A stretch of DNA of 45,329 nt from a virus (Duplodnaviria; Heunggongvirae; Uroviricota; Caudoviricetes): the IMG/VR virus record IMGVR_UViG_2541047734_000008, positions 1-45,329 of that record; one strand, 5' to 3'. The notes under the pieces were generated by a model, which saw nothing but the letters and a program-made list of their open reading frames with translations, did no database searches and had not been told where the DNA came from. Below, in pieces: positions 21,123 through 44,928 of this stretch (the first letter of the stretch is position 1; each line of letters begins with the position of its first letter). The position numbers and the translations under genes were made by a program.

Positions 21123-21123
21123 A

Positions 21124-23934: not shown

Positions 23935-23970
23935 GCCTTCCCCTGTAATTACTCTGTTCGCTGTTGTGAA

Positions 23971-24644: not shown

Positions 24645-24648
24645 TCCT

Positions 24649-26557: not shown

Positions 26558-26562
26558 GGTTT

Positions 26563-27025: not shown

Positions 27026-27230
27026 TTAGGATGGCTTTAGCCTCATTCAGTGCCATATCAGCGGTAAGCTGTGCGTAGGCCAGCGAATGGGGGATTATTT
27101 CCCCTGTATATTCCGTCTCTCTGGTAATGTGTTTTTCTGCGGTTGCTGCCGTGCATGAAATATCAATCAGCGCGTGCATCAGCGTTTTGATGGCTTCGGC
27201 GGCTGCGTCCGGACGGGTGTTATTGCACAT
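26991..27230 (-). CDS. Island hypothetical protein
   Basis: 79 aa ORF. Confidence 0.35.
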   Translation of the reverse strand: MCNNTRPDAAAEAIKTLMHALIDISCTAATAEKHITRETEYTGEIIPHSLAYAQLTADMALNEAKAILIADCENGGGYA

Positions 27231-27426
27231 GGCGCACCCCCTGACGAATACGGGCGGCGAATACCATCACACAGCCAGCCGGGGATTGCTGGCGTGCTTC
27301 CTGTTCGCTGGTGGCCTCAATGGTAATCACGCGCGGTTGTGCCGTGCTCAGGGCGATAAAACGCCAGATATATTTATTCAGGTTGTGCGAGTCCCGCCCT
27401 TGCGGGTGTGTGGTATGATTTCTCAT
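27220..27426 (-). CDS. Island small protein, first gene of leftward operon
   Basis: 68 aa from MRNHTTHPQGRDSHNLNKYIWRFIALSTAQP..; GAGG RBS; the track's 358 aa extension upstream is not protein-like. Confidence 0.45.
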   Translation of the reverse strand: MRNHTTHPQGRDSHNLNKYIWRFIALSTAQPRVITIEATSEQEARQQSPAGCVMVFAARIRQGVRHVQ

Positions 27427-27502
27427 AGCTACCTCGATACTCTTGCTATCGTTGGTGGTTAGACGCCCTGCATGTGTTGCGAGCACTGCGGGGCGTTGCT
27501 TA

Positions 27503-27603
27503 ATTTGAGTGACAAAACTCAAACTGTGCGCACAGATTAAAATCATGTGTGCGCACATGTCAATACTTAACATCTCATTTTTTTTGCTGTATTGTGTGCG
27601 CCC
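27503..27603. promoter_or_regulatory. Divergent regulatory region with palindromic operators TGTGCGCACA
   Basis: TGTGCGCACA at 27525..27534 and 27549..27558 (within CATGTGTGCGCACATG), half-site GTGTGCGC at about 27593; lies between divergent gene starts 27426 and 27632. Confidence 0.55.
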
Positions 27604-27631
27604 ATAAAGTCCATTTAAGTGAGGTGCATCA

Positions 27632-27829
27632 ATGTCTAGCGGTAACACAAACAACAAATCAGCAAAGAAAAATATTCGATTCCCACATGAGCTTATAGAT
27701 GGGATTGATGCCAGCGTTGAACAAGAAAAATTAACTAATCCTAGTGCTAATTTTTCCGCATGGGTCTTAGATGCCTGTGGACGCAAATTAAAATATGAAC
27801 AGCGCCGGAAGGCCAAAGAATCAGAATAA
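27632..27829 (+). CDS. Small ribbon-helix-helix (Arc/MetJ-like) DNA-binding protein, candidate island regulator
   Basis: 65 aa; ..KKNIRFPHELIDGIDASVE..NFSAWVLDACGRKL.. beta-strand plus two helices pattern. Confidence 0.5.
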   Translation: MSSGNTNNKSAKKNIRFPHELIDGIDASVEQEKLTNPSANFSAWVLDACGRKLKYEQRRKAKESE

Positions 27830-27871
27830 TCACTATCAGCGCCGTGGTGTGAGTAACTACGGCGCATTGCT

Positions 27872-28060
27872 ATGCAGGACAACACAATGACCGATAAAGA
27901 ATTGACCAAAACATTATCACCGACACGGAAAAGACGGCGCAGAAAGATAGAGCATGAATCAGAAAGATTCGCACCTTGTTCGTTTGCTCTTGAGAAATTC
28001 CTTAAAGAGCGCAGGAAAAAGCTCTCGTTGCAAACCCTGGAACGAACCAAATCTGACTGA
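27872..28060 (+). CDS. Island hypothetical basic protein
   Basis: 62 aa ORF downstream of the RHH gene. Confidence 0.35.
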   Translation: MQDNTMTDKELTKTLSPTRKRRRRKIEHESERFAPCSFALEKFLKERRKKLSLQTLERTKSD

Positions 28061-28126
28061 TCACATTGCCCACCAGCCGCAAATGTGGCATTGTTGGTGA
28101 TGCTTTTGTTTTCCCTTGTTCCCACT

Positions 28127-28155
28127 GGCGACCCTTTTGCGGTCGCCTTTGTTTT
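28127..28155 (+). terminator. Intrinsic terminator
   Basis: GGCGACC-CTTTTGC-GGTCGCC followed by TTTGTTTT. Confidence 0.6.
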
Positions 28156-28251
28156 GCCTGTTATCCGGCAATAGTGGCGCTTCGTCACCTGTCTGATATA
28201 ATTCCACAGCTTATATTCATTTTTTGCGCAGTAGGTTAATTGTTCGCAAGG

Positions 28252-28282
28252 GCGCTCCGGCAACGGGGCGCTTTTTGTTTTT
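28252..28282 (+). terminator. Intrinsic terminator (GNRA-loop hairpin)
   Basis: GCGCTCCG-GCAA-CGGGGCGC followed by TTTTTGTTTTT. Confidence 0.6.
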
Positions 28283-28440
28283 ACCCACCAGCACAATAAA
28301 AATCTTCATTTTCCATTTTTGTAAAATTTCATGCTTTCCGGACGACTGGTCATATGTCATTTTTTAGCAGAAGATTTTGCCTTGCTGGTGGGTAGCTTCC
28401 CGGTCAACACGATGTACCGTATAATCAACACCGCGTGTGG

Positions 28441-29019
28441 TTACTGAATACGCTCACCAAAGTAAAACTCAGGCTGGTATTCACGTATCAGCCTTTTTTC
28501 TTCTTCCTCCAGCTCACGCTTTTTGCGCTTACATGCCTGTAGCTCCCTCCCCTTCTCACTGGCACTTATCTGGTATTGCTCTTTGCGGCGGGAAAAATCC
28601 TGTAATGCGCCCCACGGGATACCATAAGCCCCCGTTTTTCTGATACCCGGTATCACATTTCTGAATACCCAGTTACTGAAACGATGAGCAAATGTGCCAG
28701 GCGTCGTTGCTTTGCGGCTGCGGGCTATTAGTTTGTAGAAACCTGACTCGGAGATAATGCTCATATTCTGATTTCCTCCGGGGGTGTAAGTTAAATTTAC
28801 TCCCTTTTCGTCATCATCAAGCATCTGCAACGCCGTACGCGAATTGGTCAGTTCCAGCGCAGCACAAACATCCTTTGCAACAAACCACGGATCGCCGTTT
28901 AGATACACCACACGAACATCCACGCCATCAAAGCGCAGAACGACCAGATCACGAATATCACAGAATTTTTTCACATGACGTGCGTCACCCTTGCCCGTCA
29001 CGGCAATATTTTTATTCAT
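28441..29019 (-). CDS. Bro-N domain protein (antirepressor-like)
   Basis: 192 aa; ..FDGVDVRVVYLNGDPWFVAKDVCAALEL.. Bro-N signature. Confidence 0.7.
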   Translation of the reverse strand: MNKNIAVTGKGDARHVKKFCDIRDLVVLRFDGVDVRVVYLNGDPWFVAKDVCAALELTNSRTALQMLDDDEKGVNLTYTPGGNQNMSIISESGFYKLIARSRKATTPGTFAHRFSNWVFRNVIPGIRKTGAYGIPWGALQDFSRRKEQYQISASEKGRELQACKRKKRELEEEEKRLIREYQPEFYFGERIQ

Positions 29020-29076
29020 TGCTTTTTACCTCACATACAAAAAACCCCGCATTGCGTGGTGCGGGGTTGTCGGTAA

Positions 29077-29355
29077 TTACTTATTGGCGTTTTTGTATGG
29101 GCTGTTTACTTCCTTTACTCCTGGCGGATGCATAACCCACCAGAGCACATCAGAGAGCAACCAGGAAACAGACACTTTCCCTAAATGAGCACGAGCAGGA
29201 AATGCTCCCTCCTGTTCAAGTACCCAACGTCTGCTTCTTGAAAGCCCGGTACGATTGGCACACTCATGTTCGCGTATACGGCGATCATACGGTTCGCCAT
29301 GATCTTTCAGAATCTGAATGCGTTCTTCGGGTGTAGGATAAATAAATTTTTGCAT
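29077..29355 (-). CDS. AlpA-family transcriptional regulator (second copy)
   Basis: Start at MQKFIYPTPEE..; AlpA-type HTH. Confidence 0.6.
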   Translation of the reverse strand: MQKFIYPTPEERIQILKDHGEPYDRRIREHECANRTGLSRSRRWVLEQEGAFPARAHLGKVSVSWLLSDVLWWVMHPPGVKEVNSPYKNANK

Positions 29356-29418
29356 AAAAATATCACCTATAAAAAAACCCGCCAAAAGACGGGTTGATTA
29401 TATCTCATTTAATTTAGC

Positions 29419-29652
29419 TCAGGGTTTCCATTCACCTTTTACCCATTCCAGCACCTCAGATAAGCGCCAGACTTTTGTTTGTGGGCCAATACATATTTTT
29501 CGTGGAAATTTTCCTTCCTTTTCAAGTAACGATCTGTGTCTCCTGCCAAGAGCGGTTAACCATGCACATTCATCTTCCTTAATCATCCTGTCGATTGTTT
29601 CATCATTTTCAAGTTCTTCACGCGTAACTATTTGAATCATTACTGTCACCAC
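29419..29652 (-). CDS. AlpA-family transcriptional regulator
   Basis: 77 aa; ..KICIGPQTKVWRLSEVLEWVKG..; immediately downstream of int. Confidence 0.7.
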   Translation of the reverse strand: MVTVMIQIVTREELENDETIDRMIKEDECAWLTALGRRHRSLLEKEGKFPRKICIGPQTKVWRLSEVLEWVKGEWKP

Positions 29653-30841
29653 TAATTTGCTTATTCAGATAGTCGTACCACCAGTTCATAGCTTCTTTTT
29701 TTCTGTCCATATACTGGCTTCTGTTATAAACCCCGGCAACACCGCCTAATGTGTGCCCAAGCAACTGTTCAACCACATTATGTTCAAAACCATGATCACT
29801 TAGTTTTGTGGCAAACACTCTTCGCATATCATGCGCCGTCCATTTCTCCGAGTGTTTCATCCTTTTCCATGTCTTACCGATAGTTACGCTTGCCGTACAC
29901 TGACGCATATCAAACCCAATCACATTTTCTTTGTTACCTGTTATTTTTTTTAACGTAACTAACCAGTTAAACATGCCATCAGGAATCGGTCTGATTATTT
30001 CCCTGCCATTTTTGCTATGATCAGCGGGAACGCGCCATAATTTCTTATCAAAATCCCACTCTACCCAGGACGACAGTAATACTTCTGACAGTCGACAACC
30101 AAAAACTACCAGGAAACGTAAAATAATTCGGTTTTCATATGATAATTCGTGATTGTCATAATCAGTATTAATACTTCGCCATAAATCTCTGATTTCATCA
30201 TCTGTTAAAACCCTGCTTCTTCGCGCAGACTTTTTTCCCACATCACAGACCTCAAGATCATCAATTTCATGACTAATCGCGTATTTTCTTACCCTACAAA
30301 ATTTAAGCGCCTGTTTTGATATACGCAACAAAGCTCCGGCCTGTACAGGTGCTACTTTTTTTATTTTGTCAAAACACTTAATCCACATAGATATAGAGCA
30401 ATCACTAAGTGGTACATGACCAATCACCGGATAAATATGTTTACCAAAGCACTGCCTGATATGTTCTGCTCCCCTACGCTTATCCATTGCATAATTATCA
30501 AGCCAGTATTCAAGTGCCTCACGAACGGTAACAGGTTGCAAGGTGGCTTCCCGTTCAATTTTTATCTGAATCCGTGGATCTCTGCCCTCCGCAAGCCAGG
30601 TTCGACACTGATCGCGCATCTCTCTCGCTGATTTGAGACTCAGATCAGGATATTTTCCAAGTGTCAGCCAGATGGGCGCGGTTCCCCTTCCCGCCAGTCT
30701 GTAAAAGAAAACAAAACTAACACATCCGTATTTACTGACCCGTACCGAAAGCCCGTTACCATCAGCGATGGTTTCCTGCCTCTCACTCCTGCGTCCAAGC
30801 AGGGAACGAAGTTTTTTATCGCTCAGTTTGTTTAGCGCCAT
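29618..30841 (-). CDS. Tyrosine integrase (P4-type)
   Basis: Start at MALNKLSDKKLRSL..; C-terminal catalytic region ..HDMRRVFATKL...LLGHTLGGVAGVYNRSQY..; adjacent to the island boundary. Confidence 0.9.
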   Translation of the reverse strand: MALNKLSDKKLRSLLGRRSERQETIADGNGLSVRVSKYGCVSFVFFYRLAGRGTAPIWLTLGKYPDLSLKSAREMRDQCRTWLAEGRDPRIQIKIEREATLQPVTVREALEYWLDNYAMDKRRGAEHIRQCFGKHIYPVIGHVPLSDCSISMWIKCFDKIKKVAPVQAGALLRISKQALKFCRVRKYAISHEIDDLEVCDVGKKSARRSRVLTDDEIRDLWRSINTDYDNHELSYENRIILRFLVVFGCRLSEVLLSSWVEWDFDKKLWRVPADHSKNGREIIRPIPDGMFNWLVTLKKITGNKENVIGFDMRQCTASVTIGKTWKRMKHSEKWTAHDMRRVFATKLSDHGFEHNVVEQLLGHTLGGVAGVYNRSQYMDRKKEAMNWWYDYLNKQISGDSNDSNSYA

Positions 30842-31012
30842 GTGATTTATAACCCGTTTTTGCAATACACAGTGCAATACACAAATGATGAAAACAGCCA
30901 GAACCTTCCAGAAAAAACAAAAACGACGAACAAGAAAAAATCTTTTTCTTTCATTTGGTTACTAAAAAAATCAGGACAGGTCGCACTGTTGTTACGGCGT
31001 GATGTTACTTTC

Positions 31013-32040
31013 TTGGTAAAAAAATTCACCCGCGCAGAGACCTGTTCTTTCGCTTTTTTCGCCAGGCGACGCAGATCATCCCAGCGTTTACAGATGCCCA
31101 GGCCGGGATTCGCTTTCTGCCAGACCGTTTCATCAAACGGATCATCTCCCTCATCGAGGGTGTAAATAATCGCAAAGTAGGAGTCGTCTTTTACCGCGCC
31201 CTCCACGTCGCTGTTATAGCCACGCAATACCTTGATGGCGTAATCACGCTGCTCGTAACAAATCCCTTCCTTGTTAAACCCTGCCGTGGTGATACCAAAT
31301 AAAAGGGACTGCAGACGGGCACCGGTTGCCGTTTCCAGAACGTCCCACACGTCACGGGTTTTATGTGCATGCAGCTCATCAATAATGGCGCAGTGGATGT
31401 TCAGACCATCCAGGTTGTTTGCATCCGAAGAAAGCGGTTCAAATTTTGATGCGCTCTGCTCCTGGTAAATCGCCAGCTTGTTGAAATCAAACAACCGCCC
31501 GAGTGTCGACCGGGCTTTTCTGACCATATTTTTGGCGTCTTCAAACACGATTCTGGCCTGGTCACGCGTGGTTGCGGCTGAATACACCTCAGCTCCGCCT
31601 TCACCATCTGCCCCCGTCATATACAGGCCGATACCCGATGACAGAGTTGATTTTGCGTTTTTACGGGCGACTTCGTTGTACGCCGTCCGGAACCGGCGCA
31701 CCATCACCGGACGTCCGCTGCCATCGCTGCGCATGACAACTTCCCCGGTCTCTTCATTGACCAGCGGAATGACAAAACCAAAAATATTAATGAGGATAAA
31801 TACATGCCAGTCCATCAACTCAATGGGCTGGCCTGCCAGCGCCCCTTTTACATGAGGCACAAATTTGTAGAAATTCAGGATGTGCTGCGCACGGGGTTCA
31901 CTGAAATAAATCCCCCGCTCTTCGCCGTACTTCAGATCATCAAGAAAACGCTGGCAGGCCAGGCGGACAAATTCGCCAGCAACAATTTCTCCTGCAACAA
32001 CACGTTCGGCGTAGCGGATCCCGTCAGCCACTTTTGCCAT
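31013..32040 (-). pseudogene. Prophage terminase large subunit, N-terminal (ATPase-domain) fragment
   Basis: 397 aa ORF with Walker-type ATPase region; homology to island TerL residues 1 to ~310 ends at ..ARVNFFTKK, then about 45 unrelated codons run into island DNA near the integrase. Confidence 0.85.
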
Positions 32041-32522
32041 CAGTCTCTCGCTTTTAAAAGCTCCGCCAGCGGATCAACATCATCCGGTCCGGCGATATTT
32101 ACTTTAGCCCGGCTTGCCGGTGACATACCAAACTCTGCAAGCATTGCCCGGATCCGCTTCCAGGCATCCGCTTTCATTGCCGCCGCGGGGTGCGCCTTAA
32201 TCAGTACATCACCGCTCTGCGTTTCCGTGCGGTAGGTATACCCCTCAACATCGAGTGTTTCGCAGTGATGCCGATATTCGGTGTAGGCTTCCACCAGCAG
32301 CTCGAGCGCACGCGCATCAAGCTGAGAAATGATCCCTTCCGCATTCAGCTCTTCCGCCATTCGCCTGAACCAGTACTTCCCCTGAGCCCCTAAATGCTGC
32401 GGAATTTTAGGAAGACCTTTTTCATCCTTTTTAGCGGTTTTTTTGTGGTCTTTAACGGGGCGCTTTGAGGGGTTACCTCGAATCAAATGCAGGCGTGGCG
32501 GGGTTTTCGGAGGTCCTGACAT
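32040..32522 (-). CDS. Prophage terminase small subunit (P27 family)
   Basis: 160 aa, MSGPPKTPPRLHLIRGNPSKR..; immediately upstream of the terL N-fragment. Confidence 0.8.
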   Translation of the reverse strand: MSGPPKTPPRLHLIRGNPSKRPVKDHKKTAKKDEKGLPKIPQHLGAQGKYWFRRMAEELNAEGIISQLDARALELLVEAYTEYRHHCETLDVEGYTYRTETQSGDVLIKAHPAAAMKADAWKRIRAMLAEFGMSPASRAKVNIAGPDDVDPLAELLKARD

Positions 32523-32670
32523 AATCGGTCTTACCTATCAATCGTTTGTTCACATTTCCAAAAAAAAGTTTTCGAACCTGCGGCGATGTGAGGAAGGGTC
32601 AGGCGGCGGTACTGAGCAGCCAGGGTTGCAGAGATTTGACCCGCCCCTCCCCTACAGATGGGAACTGTTA

Positions 32671-33021
32671 TCAATTGATGCGTTCGCGCGCTGTTTTTGC
32701 TTTATGACAGGGCCAGCACAGACTCTGCAGGTTACTGTCTGCATCTGTGCCACCATGAGCTTTCGGAATGATGTGGTCCACAGTTCTGGCTTCAACGGCT
32801 CTCCCATTGCGCAGGCAGTTCTGACACAGATGATTATCACGCTTCAGTATGCGCGCACGTATGGCATCCCATTTCGAGCCATAGCCACGCTGGTGGCGGC
32901 TCAGTCCGCGTTGATGCTGTACCCATCCTTCGCCACGATGTTTATCGCAGTAACCAGAACTGTCTGTGGTTGTACCTGCACATCCACGCTTACGGCAGGC
33001 GCGTGGGATTCGTGATGGCAT
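32671..33021 (-). CDS. Prophage HNH endonuclease
   Basis: 116 aa, Cys-rich, ..VDHIIPKAHGGTDADSNLQSLCWPCHKAKT.. Confidence 0.8.
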   Translation of the reverse strand: MPSRIPRACRKRGCAGTTTDSSGYCDKHRGEGWVQHQRGLSRHQRGYGSKWDAIRARILKRDNHLCQNCLRNGRAVEARTVDHIIPKAHGGTDADSNLQSLCWPCHKAKTARERIN

Positions 33022-33028
33022 AAATACC

Positions 33029-33229
33029 TCACACCCTGTTCAGTTGAATGACGGGCTGATTCTCGATATGTTCTGCTGTCAGTCTGAAAGTCACAGTGAC
33101 TGTTGGTGGCTCGCCTCCGCGTGACTCTGTCCTGGCGGAAAGCTGCCCTTCCAGTAACTCACCATCAACTGCAATCCCATACCCTGCGAAATGTTTACCA
33201 CGATACAGTTTAGCGACCTGAAACTTCAT
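33029..33229 (-). CDS. Hypothetical protein
   Basis: 66 aa ORF upstream of HNH. Confidence 0.35.
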   Translation of the reverse strand: MKFQVAKLYRGKHFAGYGIAVDGELLEGQLSARTESRGGEPPTVTVTFRLTAEHIENQPVIQLNRV

Positions 33230-33473
33230 AACTCTTCCTTTTAGACATGTTAGACGTGAACCTGTCGCACGGCAGAGTCGCCGAAAGTTTACGGTTTACC
33301 CAGGCTCACAGCTGAAAGCCTTTCTTAGATGTGCACATGCGATATGCTTTGAATGAATTATTAAAAACTTTACTCTTTTTCAAAATTTCGTATCCTGGCT
33401 CGTTAATGTTAAAGAATTAAACGTAAGAAAGTAGTATGTTGAATCGCTTATATCAAAATACATAGGACTCAAA

Positions 33474-33959
33474 ATGCCAGAACTCGTTGATCCAACAGAC
33501 TCATTAATTAGTTTTCAATACGCCTTTTCTAATGGTCTGATTAAGCCTTCACCATGCATAGTTCACCCAAATATGAAGGTGCTTTTGGATGATGCAGAGG
33601 GTACACCACGGTTTACTTATGCATTCTTTGAAGGAGAAAATGTTAAAGGTGTTGCTATATATGTCCCTGCAGAGTTTGTTGAAGGTAAACCATGCTTTGG
33701 CGTTGGCTATGCAGTAGCCGATGAATATAAAGCGCAAGGCATCGGTACTCAACTTCTCATCGCCAGCATTGAAGAAATGCAATACGGATTTAGAAATTCC
33801 TTCAATGAATTCTATGTAGAGGCTATTGTCGGGGTTGGTAATCAAGCCTCCAACAAATTAGCTGCAAAAGTTTTATCTGATACTCCTGAGCCAGGGACAG
33901 ATTCTTACTCAGGAAAACCTATCAATCAGTACATGAAACTTTTCAAAACCACAAAATAA
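33474..33959 (+). CDS. GNAT-family N-acetyltransferase (moron-like gene)
   Basis: 161 aa; ..GVGYAVADEYKAQGIGTQLL.. acetyl-CoA-binding motif; opposite strand to the late operon, AT-rich flanks, own terminator. Confidence 0.6.
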   Translation: MPELVDPTDSLISFQYAFSNGLIKPSPCIVHPNMKVLLDDAEGTPRFTYAFFEGENVKGVAIYVPAEFVEGKPCFGVGYAVADEYKAQGIGTQLLIASIEEMQYGFRNSFNEFYVEAIVGVGNQASNKLAAKVLSDTPEPGTDSYSGKPINQYMKLFKTTK

Positions 33960-33970
33960 CTACCATTCTG

Positions 33971-33993
33971 GCGCAGATTTTTGCGCCTTTTCA
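33971..33993 (+). terminator. Intrinsic terminator after GNAT gene
   Basis: GGCGCA-GATTTT-TGCGCC followed by TTTTC. Confidence 0.6.
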
Positions 33994-34137
33994 GGTTTGC
34001 AGTTCACCTGCCACGCTTTGTTATGCGCCTGAATGTCCCGCTTCGTCTGTTGCATTATCATAAGTAATAGCGTAGGTTGACACCTTGGCTCTCTTTCGCC
34101 ACCGGCGAATCTTTAGCGGATTATCCTTGGCCGTTTT

Positions 34138-34620
34138 TTATCTGAGACATTGCTCACGAATGTATAGCTGTGCCCCTTCCAGTTGCTTCTGCATCGTCAT
34201 CAACCGTTCTCTGAGGGTGAAATAATCCCGTTCAGCGGTGTCTGCCAGTCGGGGGCTGGTTGCATTATCCACGCTGGTGGGTCCGGTGGCTTCACGCACG
34301 GCTGCGGAGCAACTGGCATTGACCCGCAGGCGCTTACGACCAGCGGCAACATCAGCGCGCAGAGTTTCATTTTCAGCTTTCGCATTGGCTAATTCTCTCG
34401 AGTACTTTGCATCGAGCGCAGCAACATCACGCTGACGCTGTTGCATGTCAGCGATGGTGGCAGTCGCCTGCTTCAGCTCACTGACTTTTTTATCACGCTG
34501 TTCTTTGTAGGCGATGGCGTTATCACGGTAATGATTGACCGCCCACGACAGGCAGACGATGGTGCAGATAACCAGAGTATAAATAATCGCTGCGACTCTG
34601 CTCACTGATCTATCCCCCAA
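34138..34620 (-). CDS. i-spanin Rz
   Basis: 160 aa, N-terminal TM segment, coiled-coil; follows the endolysin. Confidence 0.8.
34200..34385 (-). CDS. o-spanin Rz1 (lipoprotein embedded in Rz in alternate frame)
   Basis: 61 aa, lipobox LVVSAC, Pro-rich; entirely inside Rz. Confidence 0.75.
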
Positions 34621-35135
34621 CAGGCTAATGCGCTTTCCTGGTCACGACGAATAACCTGTCCATAGCAGTTATTTGAACGTATGCGGCAATCGCGCCCACC
34701 ATCTTTTATCCACCAGCGAATCGCCTCGCATGCGCCCTTACGATCACCGGCATTCAGCCGCTTATAAAACGTCGACGGGAAACACTTACCGGGGCCAATG
34801 TTATAGGGACAGAATGACGCTATACCCGCTTTCTGTGGTTCGGTCAGTGGTACTTTAATATTGCGCTCCACCCATGCCAGCGCCTTATCACGTTCAATAG
34901 CGTTAACCTGGTCGCATTTTTCCTTCGACAGCTTCATTCCCGGTATGACGGGCTTACCATCCACCATTGTGGCACCACGACAGATGGTCCATATACCGGA
35001 ACCATCGCGGTATGCCGTAGTGTGGTTACCCTCTTTTTCATCCAGAAACTGGTCAAGTATTTGAGGAGCAGACGCGCCTGCAGCAATCAGCGCCAGAACA
35101 GCAGCTGACAGGCCGTATTTGATTTTTGCGCTCAT
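34602..35135 (-). CDS. SAR endolysin (T4-lysozyme-like, GH24)
   Basis: 177 aa; N-terminal weakly hydrophobic Gly/Ala-rich segment [18 protein letters not shown] then ..[22 protein letters not shown].. Confidence 0.85.
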
Positions 35136-35190
35136 GGATATTTATCAGGATGCTACCAATGAAAGATACTGGAAAGCCAACTGCAAAAAG

Positions 35191-35505
35191 CTAACAACCT
35201 GTAATCGAGTTATCAGAACTGTTAATTTTTATGGTATACCGCGCCTCTGAACAGGGGCGCGTTTCTGGCAACAGCTCGTCCCCTTCACATAACCCGGCAG
35301 CAACATCCAAGAAGACCTGTCTGATGCTCCTTCTGGCTGCTGCCTCATAAAACTCCAGCGCGGCACCTTCAACACGGTCCAGCGAGATGTCCAGGTCAAA
35401 AATTTCACCGTCAAAGCGTTTTTTGTCCCGTAACGCTAAAGTTACCGTAACTTTATTCTCAAAATTGCGGATCCCTTTCACAATCAGTTCATAGTTTTGA
35501 GTCAT
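35191..35505 (-). CDS. Hypothetical protein between holin and endolysin
   Basis: 104 aa ORF; position matches small conserved genes in Qin-type lysis cassettes. Confidence 0.5.
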   Translation of the reverse strand: MTQNYELIVKGIRNFENKVTVTLALRDKKRFDGEIFDLDISLDRVEGAALEFYEAAARRSIRQVFLDVAAGLCEGDELLPETRPCSEARYTIKINSSDNSITGC

Positions 35506-35509
35506 TGAA

Positions 35510-35725
35510 TTACTCTCCCCGTGCAGCCTTACGCTTGTCTTCTCTGATTTTGAAGTACAGATTTGTCAGATAAGTCAGGAAGCCCAGAACCAGACTCCCC
35601 AGTACACCAATCGCAGCCCACTGTGAAGGACTGACCTGATCAAGCCACTGTAAAAACCAGTAGCCAGCACTGCCTGCGGAGGTGCCGTAGGCAATGCCCG
35701 TTGAAATTTTGTCCATGGATTTCAT
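35510..35725 (-). CDS. Pinholin (phage 21 S-type), dual-start motif MKSMDK
   Basis: 71 aa; two TM segments; Met1 and Met4 consistent with antiholin/holin dual start; near-identical to remembered S21 sequence. Confidence 0.85.
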
Positions 35726-35785
35726 AGCCTCACCTCCGCAAATAACGGATGGCGTAGTTTTACACTGAGAAATGAAAGGGATTTG

Positions 35786-35810
35786 AAAAGAAAAACCCGC
35801 AAAAGCGGGC
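35786..35810 (-). terminator. Intrinsic terminator between tRNA cluster and holin
   Basis: Minus strand CCCGC-TTTT-GCGGG followed by TTTTTCTTTT. Confidence 0.55.
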
Positions 35811-36016
35811 GAAACGATATATACAGAAAGGAAAGCACTCTATCCAACAAACCACCCACAGTTAATCGGAATAAAAGCAGAGTGCTTATGAATGATCGCC
35901 TGCTCGAAGGTTAGTATTTCTGCACAGCAATTTTGCAAAAAAAGGCGATCATTCATAACTTAAACGTCTTTCAGTCACTCCGGGATTTCCCATCATCGCA
36001 GACTGAAAGACTCTAA

Positions 36017-36092
<76 letters not shown>

Positions 36093-36094
36093 AT

Positions 36095-36171
<77 letters not shown>

Positions 36172-36172
36172 A

Positions 36173-36249
36173 CTGGACCGCCACCGGGGACTCGAACCTC
36201 GCACACTCAACTTAAAGGGTTGACGCTCTTTCCTGATGAGCTAGTGGCG
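36173..36249 (-). tRNA. Atypical tRNA-like gene, anticodon UUU (Lys) by position, with C at position 33
   Basis: Acceptor CCGCCAC/GTGGCGG, anticodon stem TCAAC/GTTGA, loop CCTTTAA, T-loop TTCGAGT with one T-stem mismatch, CCA encoded. Confidence 0.5.
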
Positions 36250-36250
36250 G

Positions 36251-36326
36251 CTGGTGGCCCTTGCTGGATTTGAACCAGCGACCTGGCGATTATGAGTCGC
36301 TCGCTCTCACCACTGAGCTAAAGGGC
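36251..36326 (-). tRNA. tRNA with CAU anticodon (Met or lysidine-modified Ile2)
   Basis: Acceptor GGCCCTT/AAGGGCC, anticodon loop CTCATAA, T-loop TTCAAAT, CCA encoded. Confidence 0.75.
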
Positions 36327-36430
36327 CGGGCGCAGGATAATAACGTTACGAAATCAATGTTGCAAGCATTCAAAAATCACCCTTATCTCCTCCACTAGCG
36401 CATTCACCATGTCTATCCGAGATAAGTGGC

Positions 36431-36453
36431 ACAAAAAACCCGCTTGTGGGCGG
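36431..36453 (-). terminator. Candidate tR'-like terminator downstream of Q
   Basis: CCCGC..GCGGG hairpin flanked by A6 and T-run (bidirectional look); about 60-70 nt downstream of the candidate late promoter. Confidence 0.45.
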
Positions 36454-36504
36454 GTTTTGTTTGCTTTTGCCATCACGTACAAAATCGGCAAAATATCAGA
36501 TTTG

Positions 36505-36539
36505 CATGAAATATATGCCTTTCAATCTACTTTTGCAAC
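36505..36539 (-). promoter_or_regulatory. Candidate late promoter (pR'-like) at the 3' end of Q
   Basis: TTGCAA, 17-bp spacer, TATATT-like -10 on the minus strand. Confidence 0.4.
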
Positions 36540-37217
36540 ACTTTGCTTTGAAAATGCCGCCTTTTGTTTTGAACGTGTTCTCATTACAAACAATAAAGCC
36601 TCACTATCAAGTCGGTGAAAAATGTGTTTCATTGCAACCCAGTGACGAGTAAATGTTTTGGACCAGTTTTTAGTTGTCACTCCCGCCAGTAATGCCAGCT
36701 CCTGGTATTCATAACCTTCCCCACCAAAAAGTTCTGCTTTTACTGCCTGCGCCGCCAGCCAGATTAATTTTTTCAGGCGTTCCTGCGTTTTCCCTGCAAT
36801 TTTTCTGGTACCGGATTGAGTATTAAATTCATTCCACGCCCACTGTGTTATCGCGATCTGATATTCCCAACAAATACTCCCGCTGTAACACCACAACAAC
36901 CAGGCTTTATGATGTTCTTCAAGAGACAGAACAGCCCGCCGCCACGATGATGTCGAAAACTCAACCGGACTGACCAGAGGTATTGACGTCCCCTTCGCCA
37001 GCGATTGCTTTCCCGGGATTGGTGGATTATCCCGCGTTATCATTTTTCCAGTCACTTCATCGCGGTACCGGATTTTTTTTCGCCTGTAACGCCCTGTATC
37101 GAACATGGCATTCTCTTGCCAGGCTTCAAGCTGACCTTTTGTTGCCCCACTCAAATCAGCGGTGGCGATAATGAGCTGCTCACGCACAAACTGTAAATAC
37201 TGGTTATTCATGCGCAC
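36522..37217 (-). CDS. Late-gene antiterminator Q (phage 21/82-type family)
   Basis: 231 aa; between RusA and the tRNA/lysis region. Confidence 0.65.
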   Translation of the reverse strand: MRMNNQYLQFVREQLIIATADLSGATKGQLEAWQENAMFDTGRYRRKKIRYRDEVTGKMITRDNPPIPGKQSLAKGTSIPLVSPVEFSTSSWRRAVLSLEEHHKAWLLWCYSGSICWEYQIAITQWAWNEFNTQSGTRKIAGKTQERLKKLIWLAAQAVKAELFGGEGYEYQELALLAGVTTKNWSKTFTRHWVAMKHIFHRLDSEALLFVMRTRSKQKAAFSKQSVAKVD

Positions 37218-37567
37218 TCCAGTTCTGTGATTTTTATCCCCAGCCGCCCACCAGGAACGAGCTGACCGCGCACAATATTGATTTCATCAAACTGCTCGTC
37301 GTCTATAAGTAGTCCGGCATGCGTCAGCGCATCCAGTGGTGCCTTCAGGATATTGTCCAGGTCGCGGCGGCGCTTATCCGGTGGCTCTGCAATCACCTTT
37401 ATCGCCAGCCTTCCGGACAGGCTTAATTTCAGCCGCTGCTGGCGAACAATAAGCACCACAGCCCGGCGATAACGCTTTCCCTCCTCCGAGATAAAATATG
37501 TGCTGCCACGGCGTCGCCAGTAAGTGTTCACCGTCGGCGGGTAAGGTAAAACCAAATCTATGAGCAT
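37208..37567 (-). CDS. rusA: RusA-family Holliday junction resolvase
   Basis: 119 aa; ..LPYPPTVNTYWRRRG.. and ..RRRDLDNILKAPLDAL.. RusA motifs. Confidence 0.85.
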   Translation of the reverse strand: MLIDLVLPYPPTVNTYWRRRGSTYFISEEGKRYRRAVVLIVRQQRLKLSLSGRLAIKVIAEPPDKRRRDLDNILKAPLDALTHAGLLIDDEQFDEINIVRGQLVPGGRLGIKITELECA

Positions 37568-37579
37568 CAGTCACCTCTT

Positions 37580-38557
37580 TTACCCAAGCACGCCAGTTGC
37601 AAAGGCGTGATCAAGAAAACGAAAAATTAAATCAACCTGAGAACCATGCTTTTCTTCGAACGCCAGAGGATCCGCATGAAGCTCGTTGTGATGCTCCCGA
37701 CACAGCGGTAGCGTGAAAATATCGTGAGATTTTGTCCCCATTCCGCCCTGACCATGACCAATCAGGTGATGGGGATCGTCGGCTGGCTTACCACAACACG
37801 CACACGGCTGTGTCTTCACCCAGCGTGTGTATTTCTCGTTAACCCAGCGGCGACGTTTAGGTCGTTTCATGAAAGATTCCGGAGACTCAGGATCAACGGC
37901 AATGCTGACCACCGTCTTTTCCTGTGGTGGGTTCTGTTGCTGGTGGGCGTGAGGCAGCGGCGCAAGATTTTTTGTGCGCTGTTTCAGTATGCTGGTGGCG
38001 GTCTGCTCTCCCGGTACGATGTCGCTTTCACGGTACATTGAGCGGATTTTTTCCGCACGCAACCCCAGCGAACGACGTAATACCGCTTCCGGTAGCGCGT
38101 CCGCCACCTGATTGCGGACCGCCCACCAGGATAATTCAGCCAGAGATAATTCACGCTCCTGCGTACCGCTTATTGCGTGACCGATGACGTCAATCATCCA
38201 TGCTGACAGGTTTTGATGAGCAAGTTGCTCGAGTGATTCGGATGTCTGGTCACGCAACTGGTTGTCGCAGTGCCAGCACAACACCATTGCGCCGGTACCA
38301 TAACGGTGAATGACGGTTTCGCTGTGATGATAATCGCCGTGTGGCCACTGGCAGGATTTAATATGGCGCAACAGCCAGTCAGACAATGCACCAGCACCAC
38401 CAGCAGCACGAATCACCCGTGCGTTACTGAAAAACGGCAGCAATGTTTTGTCTTCCACCAGCGGCTGGCGAACGGCAGGAACGACCCCGGACGGCAGATT
38501 ACGCATGCTTTTCGGTTCAGGCTCCACCAGCACTCGAGGGTTATGAAATACTTGCAT
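37580..38557 (-). CDS. DUF968-family prophage protein (YdfU-like), C-terminal HNH-like Cys/His cluster
   Basis: Start placed at internal Met (MQVFHNPRV..); ..CACCGKPADDPHHLIGHGQGGMGTKSHDIFTLPLCREHHNELH..; the ORF track's longer start at 38701 is possible. Confidence 0.6.
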   Translation of the reverse strand: MQVFHNPRVLVEPEPKSMRNLPSGVVPAVRQPLVEDKTLLPFFSNARVIRAAGGAGALSDWLLRHIKSCQWPHGDYHHSETVIHRYGTGAMVLCWHCDNQLRDQTSESLEQLAHQNLSAWMIDVIGHAISGTQERELSLAELSWWAVRNQVADALPEAVLRRSLGLRAEKIRSMYRESDIVPGEQTATSILKQRTKNLAPLPHAHQQQNPPQEKTVVSIAVDPESPESFMKRPKRRRWVNEKYTRWVKTQPCACCGKPADDPHHLIGHGQGGMGTKSHDIFTLPLCREHHNELHADPLAFEEKHGSQVDLIFRFLDHAFATGVLG

Positions 38558-38630
38558 GGATTCACAGCCCGGCCTAAGGACCACAAGCCCGAGTTCCGGT
38601 ACCAGAACAGGTCGAAGTAATATCCGCACG

Positions 38631-38903
38631 TTACCTCCAGATCCGTTGCTGGTATGTGCGGGATGGGCGCGGTGGGCGTTCGGAATAAGGGAGCCTGACA
38701 TAGATTATCCAGTGACGATAATCGAGGCTGAGGGCTTTCTTAATCTCGTATCCGCGTCTGCTGTAGTTATGAATTAGCCATTCGGCCTGTTCTTCAGTAC
38801 ATGGTGGGTGTTGGTACCAGTCGGTTTTAAATGCGTGTGAACGCCGCTCATGCCGGATGGCAAGGTCGGTATCAGAATTGTGAAATTTGGTTTTGTGCGC
38901 CAT
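38631..38903 (-). CDS. Hypothetical prophage protein
   Basis: 90 aa ORF upstream of the DUF968 gene. Confidence 0.4.
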   Translation of the reverse strand: MAHKTKFHNSDTDLAIRHERRSHAFKTDWYQHPPCTEEQAEWLIHNYSRRGYEIKKALSLDYRHWIIYVRLPYSERPPRPSRTYQQRIWR

Positions 38904-39070
38904 CTGTTTTCTCTGCTGGCGCAGCAGGTGTCAGGTGTTCAGGCTGACGTGCGAATTGTAAACCAGAATGCCAGGAAAAAACAAAACCCGCCGAAGCGGG
39001 TTAAGTGCGGGTGCGTTGAGGATGCCTGACTCATCAGAGGTGGCGAGGGATTTCTCCCTCGCCAGGTCTC

Positions 39071-39226
39071 TTACTCCTCAGGTTCGTAAGCTGTGAAGAC
39101 AGCGACCTCCGTCTGGCCGGTTCGGATTCGTACCTCGCAGAGGTCTTTCCTCGTTACCAGTGCCGTCACAATGACGGTTAAACAGATGACGATCAGGGCG
39201 ATTAACATCGCCTTTTGCTGCTTCAT
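39071..39226 (-). CDS. hokD: Hok/Gef-family membrane toxin (HokD/RelF-like)
   Basis: MKQQKAMLIALIVICLTVIVTALVTRKDLCEVRIRTGQTEVAVFTAYEPEE: TM helix plus conserved Cys and Hok-family C-terminus. Confidence 0.85.
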   Translation of the reverse strand: MKQQKAMLIALIVICLTVIVTALVTRKDLCEVRIRTGQTEVAVFTAYEPEE

Positions 39227-39463
39227 AGCCTGCTTCTCCTTGCCTTTCGGCACGTAAGAGGCTAACCTAGATTTGCCGTTCATAGATTGAGCCTCAGATT
39301 AATGTTAAGCGTCTTGCCGGACGCGTAATGTTAACTGGGGCTTTTCTCTATCTGCCTTTCAGTGTTCATGCCTGAGACAGATAGCCTCAAGCACCCGCAG
39401 CCATTCTACTTAACTCACGTCACCTCGCCAATATGAAATCAATCAGAAAGGTGATCCATAAAA

Positions 39464-40150
39464 TCACTCCTTCTCTTCTTTTCCGTAGTGGAGTTGGCCA
39501 ATTTTGATAAGAGGGCGTCCCTGAGATTTGCGGTGTAGATTGGTATCGCGCAGAGAATACACACAGCCACAATATTCCTGCTGATAGAATTTTTCGCGCT
39601 TGCTGATTTCAATCATACGGGACGAGCCGCCCTGCTTGCGCCAGTTATAATCCCAGTACACCATACCCGGATAATGCGCAACAGCTCGCCGCCCACACTC
39701 GTTAACCTGCTGCATATTTTTCCAGCGTGAAATGCCCAGTGAACTGCTGATCACACTGAAACCATTTTCAGCAGCGTACAACGCTGTCCGCTCAAAACGC
39801 ATGTCAAAACACATGGTACAACGGATCCCCCTCTCAGGCTCCCATTCCATTCCTTTGGCACGTTCAAACCAGTTGTCGGTGTCGTAATCAGCATCGATAA
39901 ACGGCACGCCGTGTTGTTCAGCAAAGCGAATATTTTCATCCTTACGAATTAAATACTCTTTCTGAGGATGAATGTTCGGGTTGTAGAAAAAGATGGTGTA
40001 GTCGATTCCCGAGGCCTGAAGCGCCTCCATCACTTCACCGGAACATGGAGCACAGCAAGAGTGCAGTAGTAGTTTGTTTGCCCCGTTTGGGAGCTCCAAT
40101 TTAGGCCGTTTGAAATCAGCAATAGTCATAAATATTTTTATTGGGGTCAT
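39464..40150 (-). CDS. QueH-like epoxyqueuosine reductase homolog (DUF208)
   Basis: 228 aa; ..[13 protein letters not shown].. Cys motif and further conserved Cys (..CTMCFDMR.., ..YCGCVYS..) typical of QueH. Confidence 0.6.
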
Positions 40151-40303
40151 GAAAATAGCACAGAGTGTAGCATCAGAGCAGGGCTATCGGGAATATATGT
40201 CTAAATCTGGTAATATCTGGTTTTGACGCAAAGCGGACAACCACGCTGGCTCTACCCTGCGCCATGAAAATGTCAATTCACATCTGAACTAATGCTCTTT
40301 AAT

Positions 40304-40729
40304 CTAGTAACGTCTAAAATACCTAACATTTCCTTGATAAAATGCCAGTACACGCTGCATAGCTTCGCTCTTCCGGCACTCGCGACAGATTATATTCAGG
40401 CGCCTGTCGTAGCGGCGTATTTCGCCGTCTGGTAACGACCAGATAAGGTCCGGATCAACCACTGCAGGTTTCTTCACCTTTGCCCTTGAGAGTTTTTTGC
40501 GGGCATTTTGCCAGTCCTTACGCGCCTGTTCAGACGGGAATAACCCGTAACCAGAGTTGTATACATCGCCGCTGGCAACCAGCTCTCTTGCGAGAACGCT
40601 CATCAGATATCTTGTCGCACCTGTCTTGACTTCCAGTTGCCGTAACGTCTCACGCCCACTCTGGCGTACGAGTTCAACAACCTGTCCTTTAATTTTTTCC
40701 CGCTCTTCTTGTGTAAAAACTTTTGCCAC
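40304..40729 (-). CDS. Hypothetical phage protein (early region)
   Basis: 141 aa ORF downstream of the replication gene. Confidence 0.4.
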   Translation of the reverse strand: MAKVFTQEEREKIKGQVVELVRQSGRETLRQLEVKTGATRYLMSVLARELVASGDVYNSGYGLFPSEQARKDWQNARKKLSRAKVKKPAVVDPDLIWSLPDGEIRRYDRRLNIICRECRKSEAMQRVLAFYQGNVRYFRRY

Positions 40730-40769
40730 AAGCCCTCCTGAAAATTACCTCATGACCAGAAATTAACAC

Positions 40770-41870
40770 TTACCCCCTGAAGCCCGGCGGAATTTCGTTA
40801 TCCGGTTCAGAAATATGATTCACACAACGCTGGTTGTTCGTGCCGCTTACCGGGAGCAACCAGGGGTTCTCAAAATTCCGGTCCGGTCCAAAAAACGTCG
40901 TCGCTCGCTGAACAAATTCCGTTCCCGTTTTCCCGGTAGCCGCCAAGTATCTTGCGTAACGCCTCACGCCATCCAGCATGGCCTCTGGTGGCACCCCCTC
41001 GCGTAATCTGGCCTTCCAGGCACTGAAAGCGGATTTCTTCGGGTTTGCTCCGGCACGCAACGGGTACTCCCGCCAGACCTGTTCGAACACATCCGGATAA
41101 TCCACTCGTCCCACAGACTGCCCGGTGTTTTCCGGGACTACCCGATCAGCTTCCCGCTGAATGGCGGAATCGGCTTCCCGCTGAATGGCGGAATCGGCTT
41201 CGGGCTGCTGCAGTTGGTGTGATTGCTCCAGCCTTGCGGTCATCACCTGCTGCACAGCGCCCGAATCGGCTTTCAGCGCATACGCTGAATCGGCTTCCGG
41301 TGTCGTGCCTGCTGGCTGACCAAGATTGACGGTCTGAACATCCCCTGCCTGGTTCGTGGCGTTTTTTACGCCATGGACCATAGTGTTTTGATCTTCTTGA
41401 TCTGTATCTTTATCTGTATCTTTATCTGTCGTGACTCGTCGTGACATGTGCGTGACATTTCGTGACGCGCCGTGACAATCGCCATTTTGTTCCCGCTTTC
41501 TTTCCCTCTCTCGCTGCGCCCTCTTGCGCTCTGCAGGAGATTTTGCGGTTTGCGAAATATTGCCGTTGTCCTCTTTAAGCACCTGGCGTTTTTCCCATCC
41601 AGTGATTAAATCACCATCAAGTACCCGCCCCTGCATCGTCTGCAAAATTGAATCAATTACCTCTTCTGTCACGTCGAGCGCACTTGCCAAATCTTCTGTC
41701 GTGACATCAATGTGACCTCGCGTGACATTTCGTGACGCGCTCACCAGGAGGTGGATATACACTGCCATCACTGTTGCAATTGGCTGCCCTGACACCCTGG
41801 CAATTGTTCGCCACTTAGGGTCATTTGGCATGTCATGCCATAATCTGAGCCAGGCGTTAGCCATACTCAC
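40770..41870 (-). CDS. Replication initiation protein (O-like; DnaT-like C-terminal domain) with internal repeats
   Basis: 366 aa; N-terminal HTH-like region, acidic repeat-containing linker, C-terminal ..FSAWKARLREGVPPEAMLDGVRRYARYLAATGK.. primosomal DnaT-like. Confidence 0.6.
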   Translation of the reverse strand: MSMANAWLRLWHDMPNDPKWRTIARVSGQPIATVMAVYIHLLVSASRNVTRGHIDVTTEDLASALDVTEEVIDSILQTMQGRVLDGDLITGWEKRQVLKEDNGNISQTAKSPAERKRAQRERERKREQNGDCHGASRNVTHMSRRVTTDKDTDKDTDQEDQNTMVHGVKNATNQAGDVQTVNLGQPAGTTPEADSAYALKADSGAVQQVMTARLEQSHQLQQPEADSAIQREADSAIQREADRVVPENTGQSVGRVDYPDVFEQVWREYPLRAGANPKKSAFSAWKARLREGVPPEAMLDGVRRYARYLAATGKTGTEFVQRATTFFGPDRNFENPWLLPVSGTNNQRCVNHISEPDNEIPPGFRG

Positions 41871-41935
41871 CTCTTCTGATACCGAATCTTTTTACTCACG
41901 AGTTGCCGGAAGCGATTCGATATGGCTATTGTCAG

Positions 41936-42361
41936 TCAATGTACTGCCACAGCATTTCCTGCCGGGCCACCACGGTTCATCTGATTGAAACCGGCGATTG
42001 CCACTGCGACAAAATCATCAGCGTCTCTCACCAGTCGCTCCCGCGTCTCCACCAGCTCCCGAAAATAAGCTGAACTGTGGCTGCGCATTCTGGCCACCAG
42101 CAAAGGTGGCATTGCCTTTTCGATCGCTGGTAACAACGCCTGAATTTTTTCAACTGCATCAGGGGTGTCTTTCTCTACCCAGCGGAAAATTTTCTGGGTA
42201 TTGCGAGCCAGGGCTTCCGGATGGCTGTCGTCATACAGTTCTGGGAACGTCATACCCAGTTCAAAATAAGCCCTGGTTATTTCAGCTGCCGGAACTTTTT
42301 CACCGTCCGGATGCGCCCAGGCATTCATCGCCATGCGGATGTGTTCATGCTTGATTTTCAT
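41936..42361 (-). CDS. YdaT-like regulatory protein (cII-position analog)
   Basis: 141 aa, MKIKHEHIRMAMNAW..; between cro-like and O-like genes. Confidence 0.5.
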   Translation of the reverse strand: MKIKHEHIRMAMNAWAHPDGEKVPAAEITRAYFELGMTFPELYDDSHPEALARNTQKIFRWVEKDTPDAVEKIQALLPAIEKAMPPLLVARMRSHSSAYFRELVETRERLVRDADDFVAVAIAGFNQMNRGGPAGNAVAVH

Positions 42362-42626
42362 GAATCAAGCTCCTAGAAAGTGGTTGTGTTAACGTTTTGG
42401 TATCTTCCAGCTCGGGCCAAATATTCATCCAATCAAAAGGCCTTAGTTGCTGACGTGTAACTTCACCATTACTGGCTCGCTCAATAAGGACGCATAACGA
42501 TGCCCCTAACACTTGACCTTTACTCAATGCCTTTCTTAGATAACCGATGCTGGTACCACACTCGCATGCAAACATACGCTGTTCATCTGACGAAAGAGAA
42601 TTGAGAAATATTCTTAATTCTTCCAT
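42345..42626 (-). CDS. Cro/YdaS-like HTH regulator
   Basis: 93 aa, ..CGTSIGYLRKALSKGQ.. HTH; divergent from the repressor gene. Confidence 0.6.
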   Translation of the reverse strand: MEELRIFLNSLSSDEQRMFACECGTSIGYLRKALSKGQVLGASLCVLIERASNGEVTRQQLRPFDWMNIWPELEDTKTLTQPLSRSLIHENQA

Positions 42627-42653
42627 AGCTACTCCTTAGTAAACACAGTAAAG

Positions 42654-42733
42654 AATACCCACAGGTAAACAAAAGTCAATACCCACAGGTTGTTTACCTT
42701 GCGGTAATCGCATCTATTATTTACCTATGGACA
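42654..42733. promoter_or_regulatory. Divergent promoter/operator region of the immunity switch with repeated TACC-N4-GGTA sites
   Basis: AATACCCACAGGT at 42654..42666 and 42679..42691; TACCTATGG overlapping the repressor start codon. Confidence 0.55.
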
Positions 42734-43146
42734 AATATGAATTTAGACGACAGCAACTCATCAAAATTCGTGATGAGAAATGCGATGGTAAAGCGGTTAA
42801 CGTGGCCAGAAAGATCGGGCGCGAGCCTTCTTATGTATCAAGAATGTTGTACCCAGAGGGGAAAAAGGGAAAAAAACGGATCGCTGATGATATGGTGGAG
42901 ATTATCGAAGAGTCCTTTGGGTTACCCCGGGGATGGATGGATGGTATCGTTTCATCATCAACGAACACAGCCTCCAGTTATGAAACAAGGGTTCTAACGC
43001 CACGACAACGTATTTTTTTAGATCTCTTAGACGAACTGCCAGAAAGTGAAGCGGATAACTTATTAAAAACTCTTGAAGAGAAAAAACAGTATTACAATAT
43101 GATCTACGAAGAAATCCGTAAAAAGAAAGCACAAAACGCATCATAG
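42727..43146 (+). CDS. DicA-like HTH repressor
   Basis: 139 aa; HTH ..AVNVARKIGREPSYVSRML..; C-terminus ..FLDLLDELPESEADNLLKTLEE.. resembles DicA. Confidence 0.65.
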   Translation: MDKYEFRRQQLIKIRDEKCDGKAVNVARKIGREPSYVSRMLYPEGKKGKKRIADDMVEIIEESFGLPRGWMDGIVSSSTNTASSYETRVLTPRQRIFLDLLDELPESEADNLLKTLEEKKQYYNMIYEEIRKKKAQNAS

Positions 43147-43188
43147 CTCACCAAACAACTAGTCACCAGTTAAGACACCGCAAAAAGT

Positions 43189-43225
43189 TACCCATGGGTA
43201 TTTACTTTTTAAATACCTATGGGTA
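43189..43225. promoter_or_regulatory. Palindromic operator-like sites downstream of repressor gene
   Basis: TACCCATGGGTA (perfect 12-bp palindrome, 43189..43200) and TACCTATGGGTA (43214..43225). Confidence 0.5.
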
Positions 43226-43411
43226 TCCTTCTTTTCATACCAACCCACCCCGCCCCACAGAATGCAGGGCAATACTTCGAGTTACCAGGCAGTGGTCAGG
43301 GGTTAAGTAGCCAGCCCGAGGCGTAAGAACATGACGGCAGGGTTCAACTTTAATAACTATGCAGCAGGTTTTTGTTCCGCTACCCCAGCGTTAAGGGGAA
43401 ATGAGGTCAGC

Positions 43412-44875: not shown

Positions 44876-44928
44876 TTTCTGGTGACGTTTGGCGGTATCA
44901 GTTTTACTCCGTGACTGCTCTGCCGCCC
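44876..44928 (+). ncRNA. dicF: DicF-like small RNA (cell-division inhibitor sRNA of Qin-type prophages)
   Basis: TTTCTGGTGACGTTTGGCGGTATCAGTTTTACTCCGTGACTGCTCTGCCGCCC followed by TTTTT matches the remembered DicF sequence; context ydfA-ydfB-ydfC upstream. Confidence 0.7.

Follow-up and report, generated by a model that had tools for sequence, protein, structure and literature searches.

The prophage and its queH locus

The window, by which we mean the whole 45,329-nt stretch of DNA that was analysed, is a Rac/Qin-like lambdoid prophage of E. coli with HK97-type head genes. Along its minus strand run cro-like and YdaT genes, the replisome organizer (40770..41870), a DUF977 gene (40304..40729; Pfam DUF977, E = 4.8e-28), queH (39464..40129), the hok/mok/sok type I toxin-antitoxin locus (39071..39396), a DUF968 gene (37580..38701), RusA, the antiterminator Q (36522..37217), four tRNA genes and the lysis genes, after which come the HK97-type head genes and the tail genes. 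This order places queH inside the delayed-early rightward (pR) operon and in the same orientation, with the replication genes before it and Q after it, and bears out the original prediction that the gene is prophage cargo of the early region.

The longest uninterrupted reading frame at the locus (minus strand, 39464..40150; 228 aa) opens with an ATG and contains the motif HSCCAPCS. A second ATG, at 40129, is probably the translated start, and yields a 221-aa product (39464..40129, minus strand, stop codon included) that is predicted to be a cobalamin-independent tRNA epoxyqueuosine(34) reductase. We favour this start because the N-termini of orthologues align to it and because PGAP places the 221-aa product at this position in a genome that is 100% identical at the DNA level over positions 39000-40800 of the window. 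The seven in-frame codons that begin at the first ATG (MTPIKIF; minus strand, 40130..40150) probably stay untranslated as part of the queH leader, and this upstream ATG lies ~14 nt past a putative -10 element (see below). RefSeq lists the very same 221-aa sequence as WP_000150294.1, under the name "epoxyqueuosine reductase QueH"; the prophage gene is an ordinary, intact and previously annotated copy.

The upstream neighbour of queH is constant and the downstream one variable. DUF977 precedes the gene in all 80 IMG/VR loci (viral contigs) that encode the identical protein, as well as in four other prophages examined. Downstream, 58 of these 80 contigs have hok/sok, and 21 have a restriction-modification pair (dcm/NgoMIV) in its place. 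In E. coli O157:H7 strain Z1767 (positions 2806..4816 of that locus), too, a dcm-type cytosine methyltransferase and an NgoMIV-family restriction endonuclease replace hok/sok, and beside other queH alleles lie a methyltransferase remnant or further small genes. When five prophage alleles are aligned, the unit that they share is the ORF with 45-110 nt of leader; it ends a few nucleotides past the stop codon, and the flanks differ. Judged by these neighbours and boundaries, queH is a discrete cargo in a hypervariable slot, and the slot that follows it is a point of cargo exchange. The proximity to hok, to which attention had been drawn earlier, is genuine (hokD is annotated immediately downstream, and sok, at 39221..39396, scores 111.9 bits in Rfam), and, considering that the downstream neighbour alternates with a restriction-modification pair, incidental.

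The prophage carries two large insertions. A 14.6-kb element resembling the capsid-forming PICI satellites (16378..31012; junctions at ~16377 and 31013) is inserted at a TTGGTAA core in the prophage terL, which it splits into two pieces (31013..32040 and 15634..16359). It encodes a tyrosine integrase (29618..30877), HTH regulators, Bro-N, a RepA/AAA_25 helicase and ProQ/FinO, together with a capsid protein, an S78 protease, a portal and its own full terL (16886..18547). The same arrangement is annotated in E. coli 2014C-3075, where two terL pseudogene halves flank the element, and at least 11 other genomes with related elements list 'terminase large subunit (x2)'; the integration of satellites into prophages is known as a general phenomenon (PMC11389934). 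Additionally, an IS66-family element (~2234..4764; HTH_Tnp_1 orfA, 2319..2744; IS66 Orf2/TnpB, 2741..3091; DDE transposase, 3122..4735) splits the lambda K-like tail gene (NlpC/P60), and the segments of a comparison genome that align on either side of this insertion overlap by ~9 bp. With both terL and the tail gene interrupted, the prophage is defective.

A DicF antisense sRNA in the immunity-left region (plus strand, 44877..44928; Rfam, 76.7 bits) marks the prophage as Qin/Rac-like, and the comparison genome has dicB/kil-like genes. The immunity region on the cro/cI side (42367..43245) has no alignment to the comparison prophage, while its flanks are 99.5-99.9% identical, so that the immunity module looks to have been swapped. 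Positions 31013..42366 are a net 24 nt longer than an otherwise 99.6%-identical prophage in NZ_AP017610.1; a tandem EADSAIQR repeat in the replisome-organizer ORF (around 41045..41330) is a possible site of this difference, through iteron-like repeat variation. On the opposite strand (plus; 33474..33959), a gene for a GNAT acetyltransferase lies between HNH/terminase and the lysis genes and looks like further prophage cargo.

Family membership, conserved residues and predicted fold

The ORF, with its CCAPCS cysteine motif, had been proposed to encode a QueH/DUF208 homologue, and profile search and structure prediction both agree with this assignment. The protein matches Pfam PF02677 (QueH/DUF208) at E = 1.1e-65 over profile positions 1-174 of 175, with 221.5 bits against a gathering cut-off of 23.5 bits, and residues 27-203 of the ORF match the sequence of T. 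maritima QueH (PDB 7lc5/7lc7/9deu; E = 7.8e-22). It likewise matches PHROG 3217 (E = 1.9e-138), which is labelled "unknown function". A search of NCBIfam with the prophage QueH gave zero matches, and hence no equivalog-level support, which indicates that the QueH name in RefSeq rests on Pfam-level or BLAST-level evidence.

A search of a representative library recovered 4774 QueH relatives at E <= 1e-3. Conservation was assessed in an alignment of the prophage QueH with 69 full-length, diverse representatives of 50%-identity clusters. All seven family cysteines are kept (C32, C33, C36, C111, C114, C194 and C196, in the numbering of the 228-aa ORF), and the pattern CCxPC ... CxxC ... CGC, associated in the family with an Fe-S cluster and additional metal binding, is complete. 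These positions are conserved in 74-97% of the 69 representatives, the remainder being mostly gaps, and further near-invariant residues present in the prophage protein include N57, N59, E65, Y66, R69, R110, R118 and K144. In T. maritima QueH the seven positions are occupied by C9, C10, D13, C87, C90, C169 and C171; Cys36 of the prophage protein thus stands where the T. maritima enzyme has Asp13. Since cysteine is the majority state there (61 of the 69 representatives), it is T. maritima QueH that is the exception. Both C9 and D13 of that enzyme have been mutated by structural biologists (C9S in 9D86, D13N in 9DCO, according to the PDB titles). Our metal-ligand assignments for T. maritima QueH come solely from PDB titles and the alignment, and the metal-site details suggested for the prophage protein are extrapolated from the family majority, not from a solved structure. 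The outcome that would have spoken against the assignment, a lack of a significant QueH profile match or of the catalytic Cys/Asp residues, was not obtained: the profile match is very strong and every conserved cysteine is present. At the Asp13 position the protein has the family-majority cysteine.

The AlphaFold2 model of the prophage protein, built on 52 sequences, reached a mean pLDDT of 81.1 and a pTM of 0.81, with the termini alone being weak. When compared with the PDB by Foldseek, its five best matches were all QueH structures (TM normalised to the target 0.84-0.86, rmsd 2.2-2.5 Å), headed by 7lc5 (TM 0.86, rmsd 2.2 Å). The next matches (E ~1e-5) were enzymes of the adenine-nucleotide alpha-hydrolase (AANH) fold, namely argininosuccinate synthetase, TtuA and LarE. 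The protein is accordingly modelled with a QueH fold, which has a Rossmann-like, AANH-type core.

Origin, selection and expression signals

The closest relatives of the prophage QueH are encoded by non-phage, chromosomal queH genes of other Enterobacterales (86-90% identity). A cluster that includes Citrobacter koseri, Klebsiella oxytoca and E. albertii (90% identity) has the gene beside LysR and GNAT genes, and Erwinia (86%) in the order purL-queH-glrK; at ~80% identity follow Providencia (tmcA-queH) and Photorhabdus, Ewingella and Gibbsiella, where the neighbours are housekeeping genes. The chromosomal closest relatives, the cassette boundaries and the alternating downstream neighbour together show the non-phage origin and the variable slot that are expected of a moron. 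Synonymous sites are saturated between phage and chromosomal copies, which indicates that the capture of queH is old.

The gene is widespread in E. coli. It was found in 995 of 5426 complete genomes (~18%; 985 at >= 80% coverage), nearly always as a single copy and at many different chromosomal positions, and the exact protein occurs on at least 1000 contigs. All 40 queH records sampled across the ranking are named QueH. Among viral sequences, 189 IMG/VR contigs encode a QueH relative, and the isolated temperate phage HannyBb is the only deposited phage genome with a close copy (95% amino-acid identity), where it is annotated as "hypothetical protein".

Prophage alleles differ from one another at dS 0.27-0.45 and dN 0.013-0.024, that is, with dN/dS of 0.05-0.06. 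Such low ratios at dS of up to 0.45 point to long and strong purifying selection while the gene was resident in phages, and argue against a decaying passenger. A chromosomal gene that was acquired through illegitimate recombination, and has since hitch-hiked in successful prophages with no function for phage or host, could be envisaged on the grounds that QueG is already encoded in every host genome, that the slot collects miscellaneous cargo and that the prophage in the window is crippled by its two insertions. We regard this as barely credible, as it is largely refuted by the signature of selection and fits poorly with an ORF of >= 80% of full length in 985 genomes and with the retention of all catalytic-site cysteines.

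The leader that travels with queH between prophages (minus strand, 40130..40246, as delimited by the five-allele alignment) is AT-rich and SD-less. It includes an extended -10-like motif, TGCTACACT (minus strand, 40164..40172), 34 nt upstream of the queH ATG, which may be part of the gene's own sigma-70 promoter. Four of the five aligned prophage alleles have the motif unaltered (the O7:H15 allele reads TGCTACACA), the identical 9-mer is found upstream of the chromosomal queH of Erwinia, and the Citrobacter/Klebsiella-like chromosomal copy has TGCTAAAAT at the matching distance. A scan for two-hexamer consensus promoters found no canonical promoter for queH and did not flag TGCTACACT, and a terminator scan found no intrinsic terminator flanking queH, nor any separating it from the upstream genes. 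The one promoter-like site on the minus strand (39431..39403) lies past queH and presumably serves hok, and the sole predicted intrinsic terminator follows hok. We infer that queH was captured together with its native promoter and leader, and that it could be expressed in the lysogen.

Two other RNA signals were considered in this region. A B12 or preQ1 riboswitch upstream of queH would have coupled its expression to the cofactor or to the state of the pathway; such a riboswitch, or another RNA element, was rejected, as Rfam at E <= 1 gave only sok and sub-threshold noise. A sub-threshold match to IsrK, a Salmonella prophage sRNA (minus strand, 38981..39062; 27.8 bits against a gathering threshold of 50, E = 0.0016), overlaps the terminator just downstream of hok and may be merely the terminator hairpin.

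The original prediction had also connected QueH with the tRNAs of the phage and with a tuning of host translation. The prophage does encode its own tRNAs, in a cluster of four genes (minus strand, 36018..36327; ARAGORN and Rfam tRNA) with the anticodons UCC (Gly), UGU (Thr), UUU (Lys) and CAU, the last annotated as tRNA-Ile by PGAP. Queuosine is confined to tRNAs with GUN anticodons (Asp, Asn, His and Tyr), and since none of the four has such an anticodon, they are not queuosine substrates and the proposed connection does not hold. The tuning of host translation is a hypothesis to which codon usage lends no support: among NAY codons, NAU accounts for 0.60 in the late genes of the prophage, against 0.55 in its early genes and 0.53 in a small host sample of nine K-12 core genes, and the difference between 0.60 and 0.53 is too small to speak for it.

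Because the scan detected neither a classical promoter nor an intrinsic terminator beside queH, the gene may be transcribed only within the pR operon after induction. The same enzyme would then act as a lytic-phase auxiliary, pushing the GUN-anticodon tRNAs of the host from oQ to Q for the translation of late genes. The position of queH, co-oriented within the delayed-early operon that extends from the replication genes to Q, is compatible with such a role, as are the lack of a terminator before the gene and of a canonical promoter in the scan, and its retention in the isolated phage HannyBb. Against it stand the conserved extended -10-like motif that the prophage gene has in common with its chromosomal orthologues, the NAU share of the late genes, only slightly above that of the small host sample, and the limited turnover of tRNAs within one lytic cycle. 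On balance, we consider a purely lytic role rather unlikely.

Queuosine synthesis and comparison with known systems

We put at roughly 80% the probability that the prophage queH encodes a functional oQ-to-Q reductase that needs no B12 and is retained by the prophage as cargo. The analysis shows the identity, intactness, conservation, distribution and context of the gene; the enzymatic activity, the expression in the lysogen from its own promoter and any benefit of B12 independence are what we infer. A lambdoid phage lineage would have acquired the gene, with its short native leader, from the chromosome of a member of the Enterobacterales, and selection would have kept it in the variable slot between the DUF977/replication module and the nin-like region. 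The iron-sulfur and cobalamin-independent QueH would convert oQ34 to Q34 in tRNA-Asp, -Asn, -His and -Tyr, and would thereby give the host a second, B12-independent last step of Q synthesis beside QueG, to which it would relate as MetE does to MetH.

The remainder of the pathway is expected in the host, as tgt and queA belong to the core gene set of E. coli, and E. coli has no de novo synthesis of B12. Frey et al. reportedly observed in 1988 that E. coli accumulates oQ when B12 is missing, and QueH is said, following Zallot et al. in 2017, to perform the reduction of oQ without cobalamin. A phenotype that distinguishes oQ-tRNA from Q-tRNA is not known to us, and this is the weakest link in the argument for an advantage. 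Host queG was found in all 5426 complete E. coli genomes. In E. coli, oQ34-tRNA is made via Tgt and QueA and reduced to Q by QueG (PMC5372724, PMC9508795), an enzyme that is counted among the cobamide-dependent ones of this species (PMC11841063).

Two readings retain the protein family and assign it another purpose. The gene could be kept for conflict, in that having Q and not oQ at position 34 of the Asp, Asn, His and Tyr tRNAs, whatever the supply of B12, might alter the sensitivity to anticodon nucleases or to tRNA-targeting defences. Toxins of the colicin E5 type are anticodon nucleases that cut next to Q34 and enter through the B12 receptor BtuB. If this were true, the modification state of tRNA would be a phage-determined, strain-variable trait in ~18% of E. 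coli; we hold it to be very unlikely. As for a role in defence or anti-defence, PADLOC gave no match for QueH or its neighbours, and the idea was set aside.

Also very unlikely is a repurposed QueH that acts on a non-tRNA 7-deazaguanine substrate such as modified DNA, or changes tRNA modification as a counter-measure to defence systems or anticodon nucleases that read position 34. The DNA of some phages is indeed modified by 7-deazaguanine chemistry (PMC6884629), and the neighbouring slot harbours conflict genes (hok/sok, restriction-modification). The prophage annotation and the scanned ORFs, on the other hand, contain no DpdA/TGT, QueA or preQ0-synthesis genes, PADLOC is without a match, a change of substrate is improbable at 86-90% identity to housekeeping chromosomal QueH, and Hutinet et al. 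report that QueA, QueG and QueH are absent from the deazaguanine phages that they analysed (PMC6884629). A role in DNA modification was likewise rejected, as no transglycosylase or preQ0 genes occur in the annotated prophage, in the annotated copy of the satellite elsewhere or in the scanned ORFs of the window.

The enzyme, its family and the annotation of the exact protein are already known, and there is no mechanistic novelty in them. Searches of the literature for QueH or epoxyqueuosine in connection with phages and prophages brought up no paper that discusses a prophage-borne QueH in E. coli. On the preferred reading, that of a B12-independent oQ-to-Q reductase, about one in five E. coli strains (~18%) would carry a phage-delivered alternative to QueG that does without B12, and where B12 is scarce, strains may differ in the oQ/Q state of their tRNA through prophage queH, a cause which seems not to have been discussed. 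The prophage gene is a clean case of a tRNA-modification gene carried by a phage, and one that lends itself to testing; the annotations of PHROG 3217 and of the HannyBb copy can be corrected to QueH.

Five known systems serve as points of comparison. The T. maritima QueH (PDB 7LC5/7LC7/9DEU) resembles the prophage protein in its full-length profile match, its fold (predicted for the latter), 31% identity and the shared cysteine positions C9/C10/C87/C90/C169/C171; it differs in having Asp13 where the prophage protein has Cys and in being encoded chromosomally and not by a prophage, while the prophage protein has a short N-terminal extension and ~25 additional C-terminal residues. The chromosomal QueH of Enterobacterales is of equal length and its gene has the same kind of SD-less, AT-rich leader, with a TGnTAnnnT motif common to the prophage, Erwinia and Citrobacter-like copies; whereas these genes lie between housekeeping genes, the prophage queH lies between replication and nin-like genes and is mobile with prophages. 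QueG (E. coli yjeS) catalyses the same reaction (EC 1.17.99.6) on the same tRNA substrates and co-resides in every queH-positive E. coli, and is unrelated in fold and cofactor, as it depends on cobalamin and Fe-S, whereas QueH needs no cobamide.

With the 'moron' or lysogenic-conversion cargo of lambdoid phages in the replication-to-Q interval, queH has in common that it is one gene, not originally a phage gene, and that it occupies a hypervariable slot with swappable flanking cargo; it differs in that no terminator of its own was found and that its putative promoter is suggested by a conserved motif. The phage 7-deazaguanine DNA-modification clusters (DpdA with FolE/QueD/QueE/QueC and others) are alike in being phage-borne sets of queuosine/archaeosine-pathway genes, yet they produce bases derived from preQ0 for insertion into DNA, reportedly without QueA, QueG or QueH (PMC6884629), whereas the prophage described here has a lone last-step tRNA enzyme and no transglycosylase.
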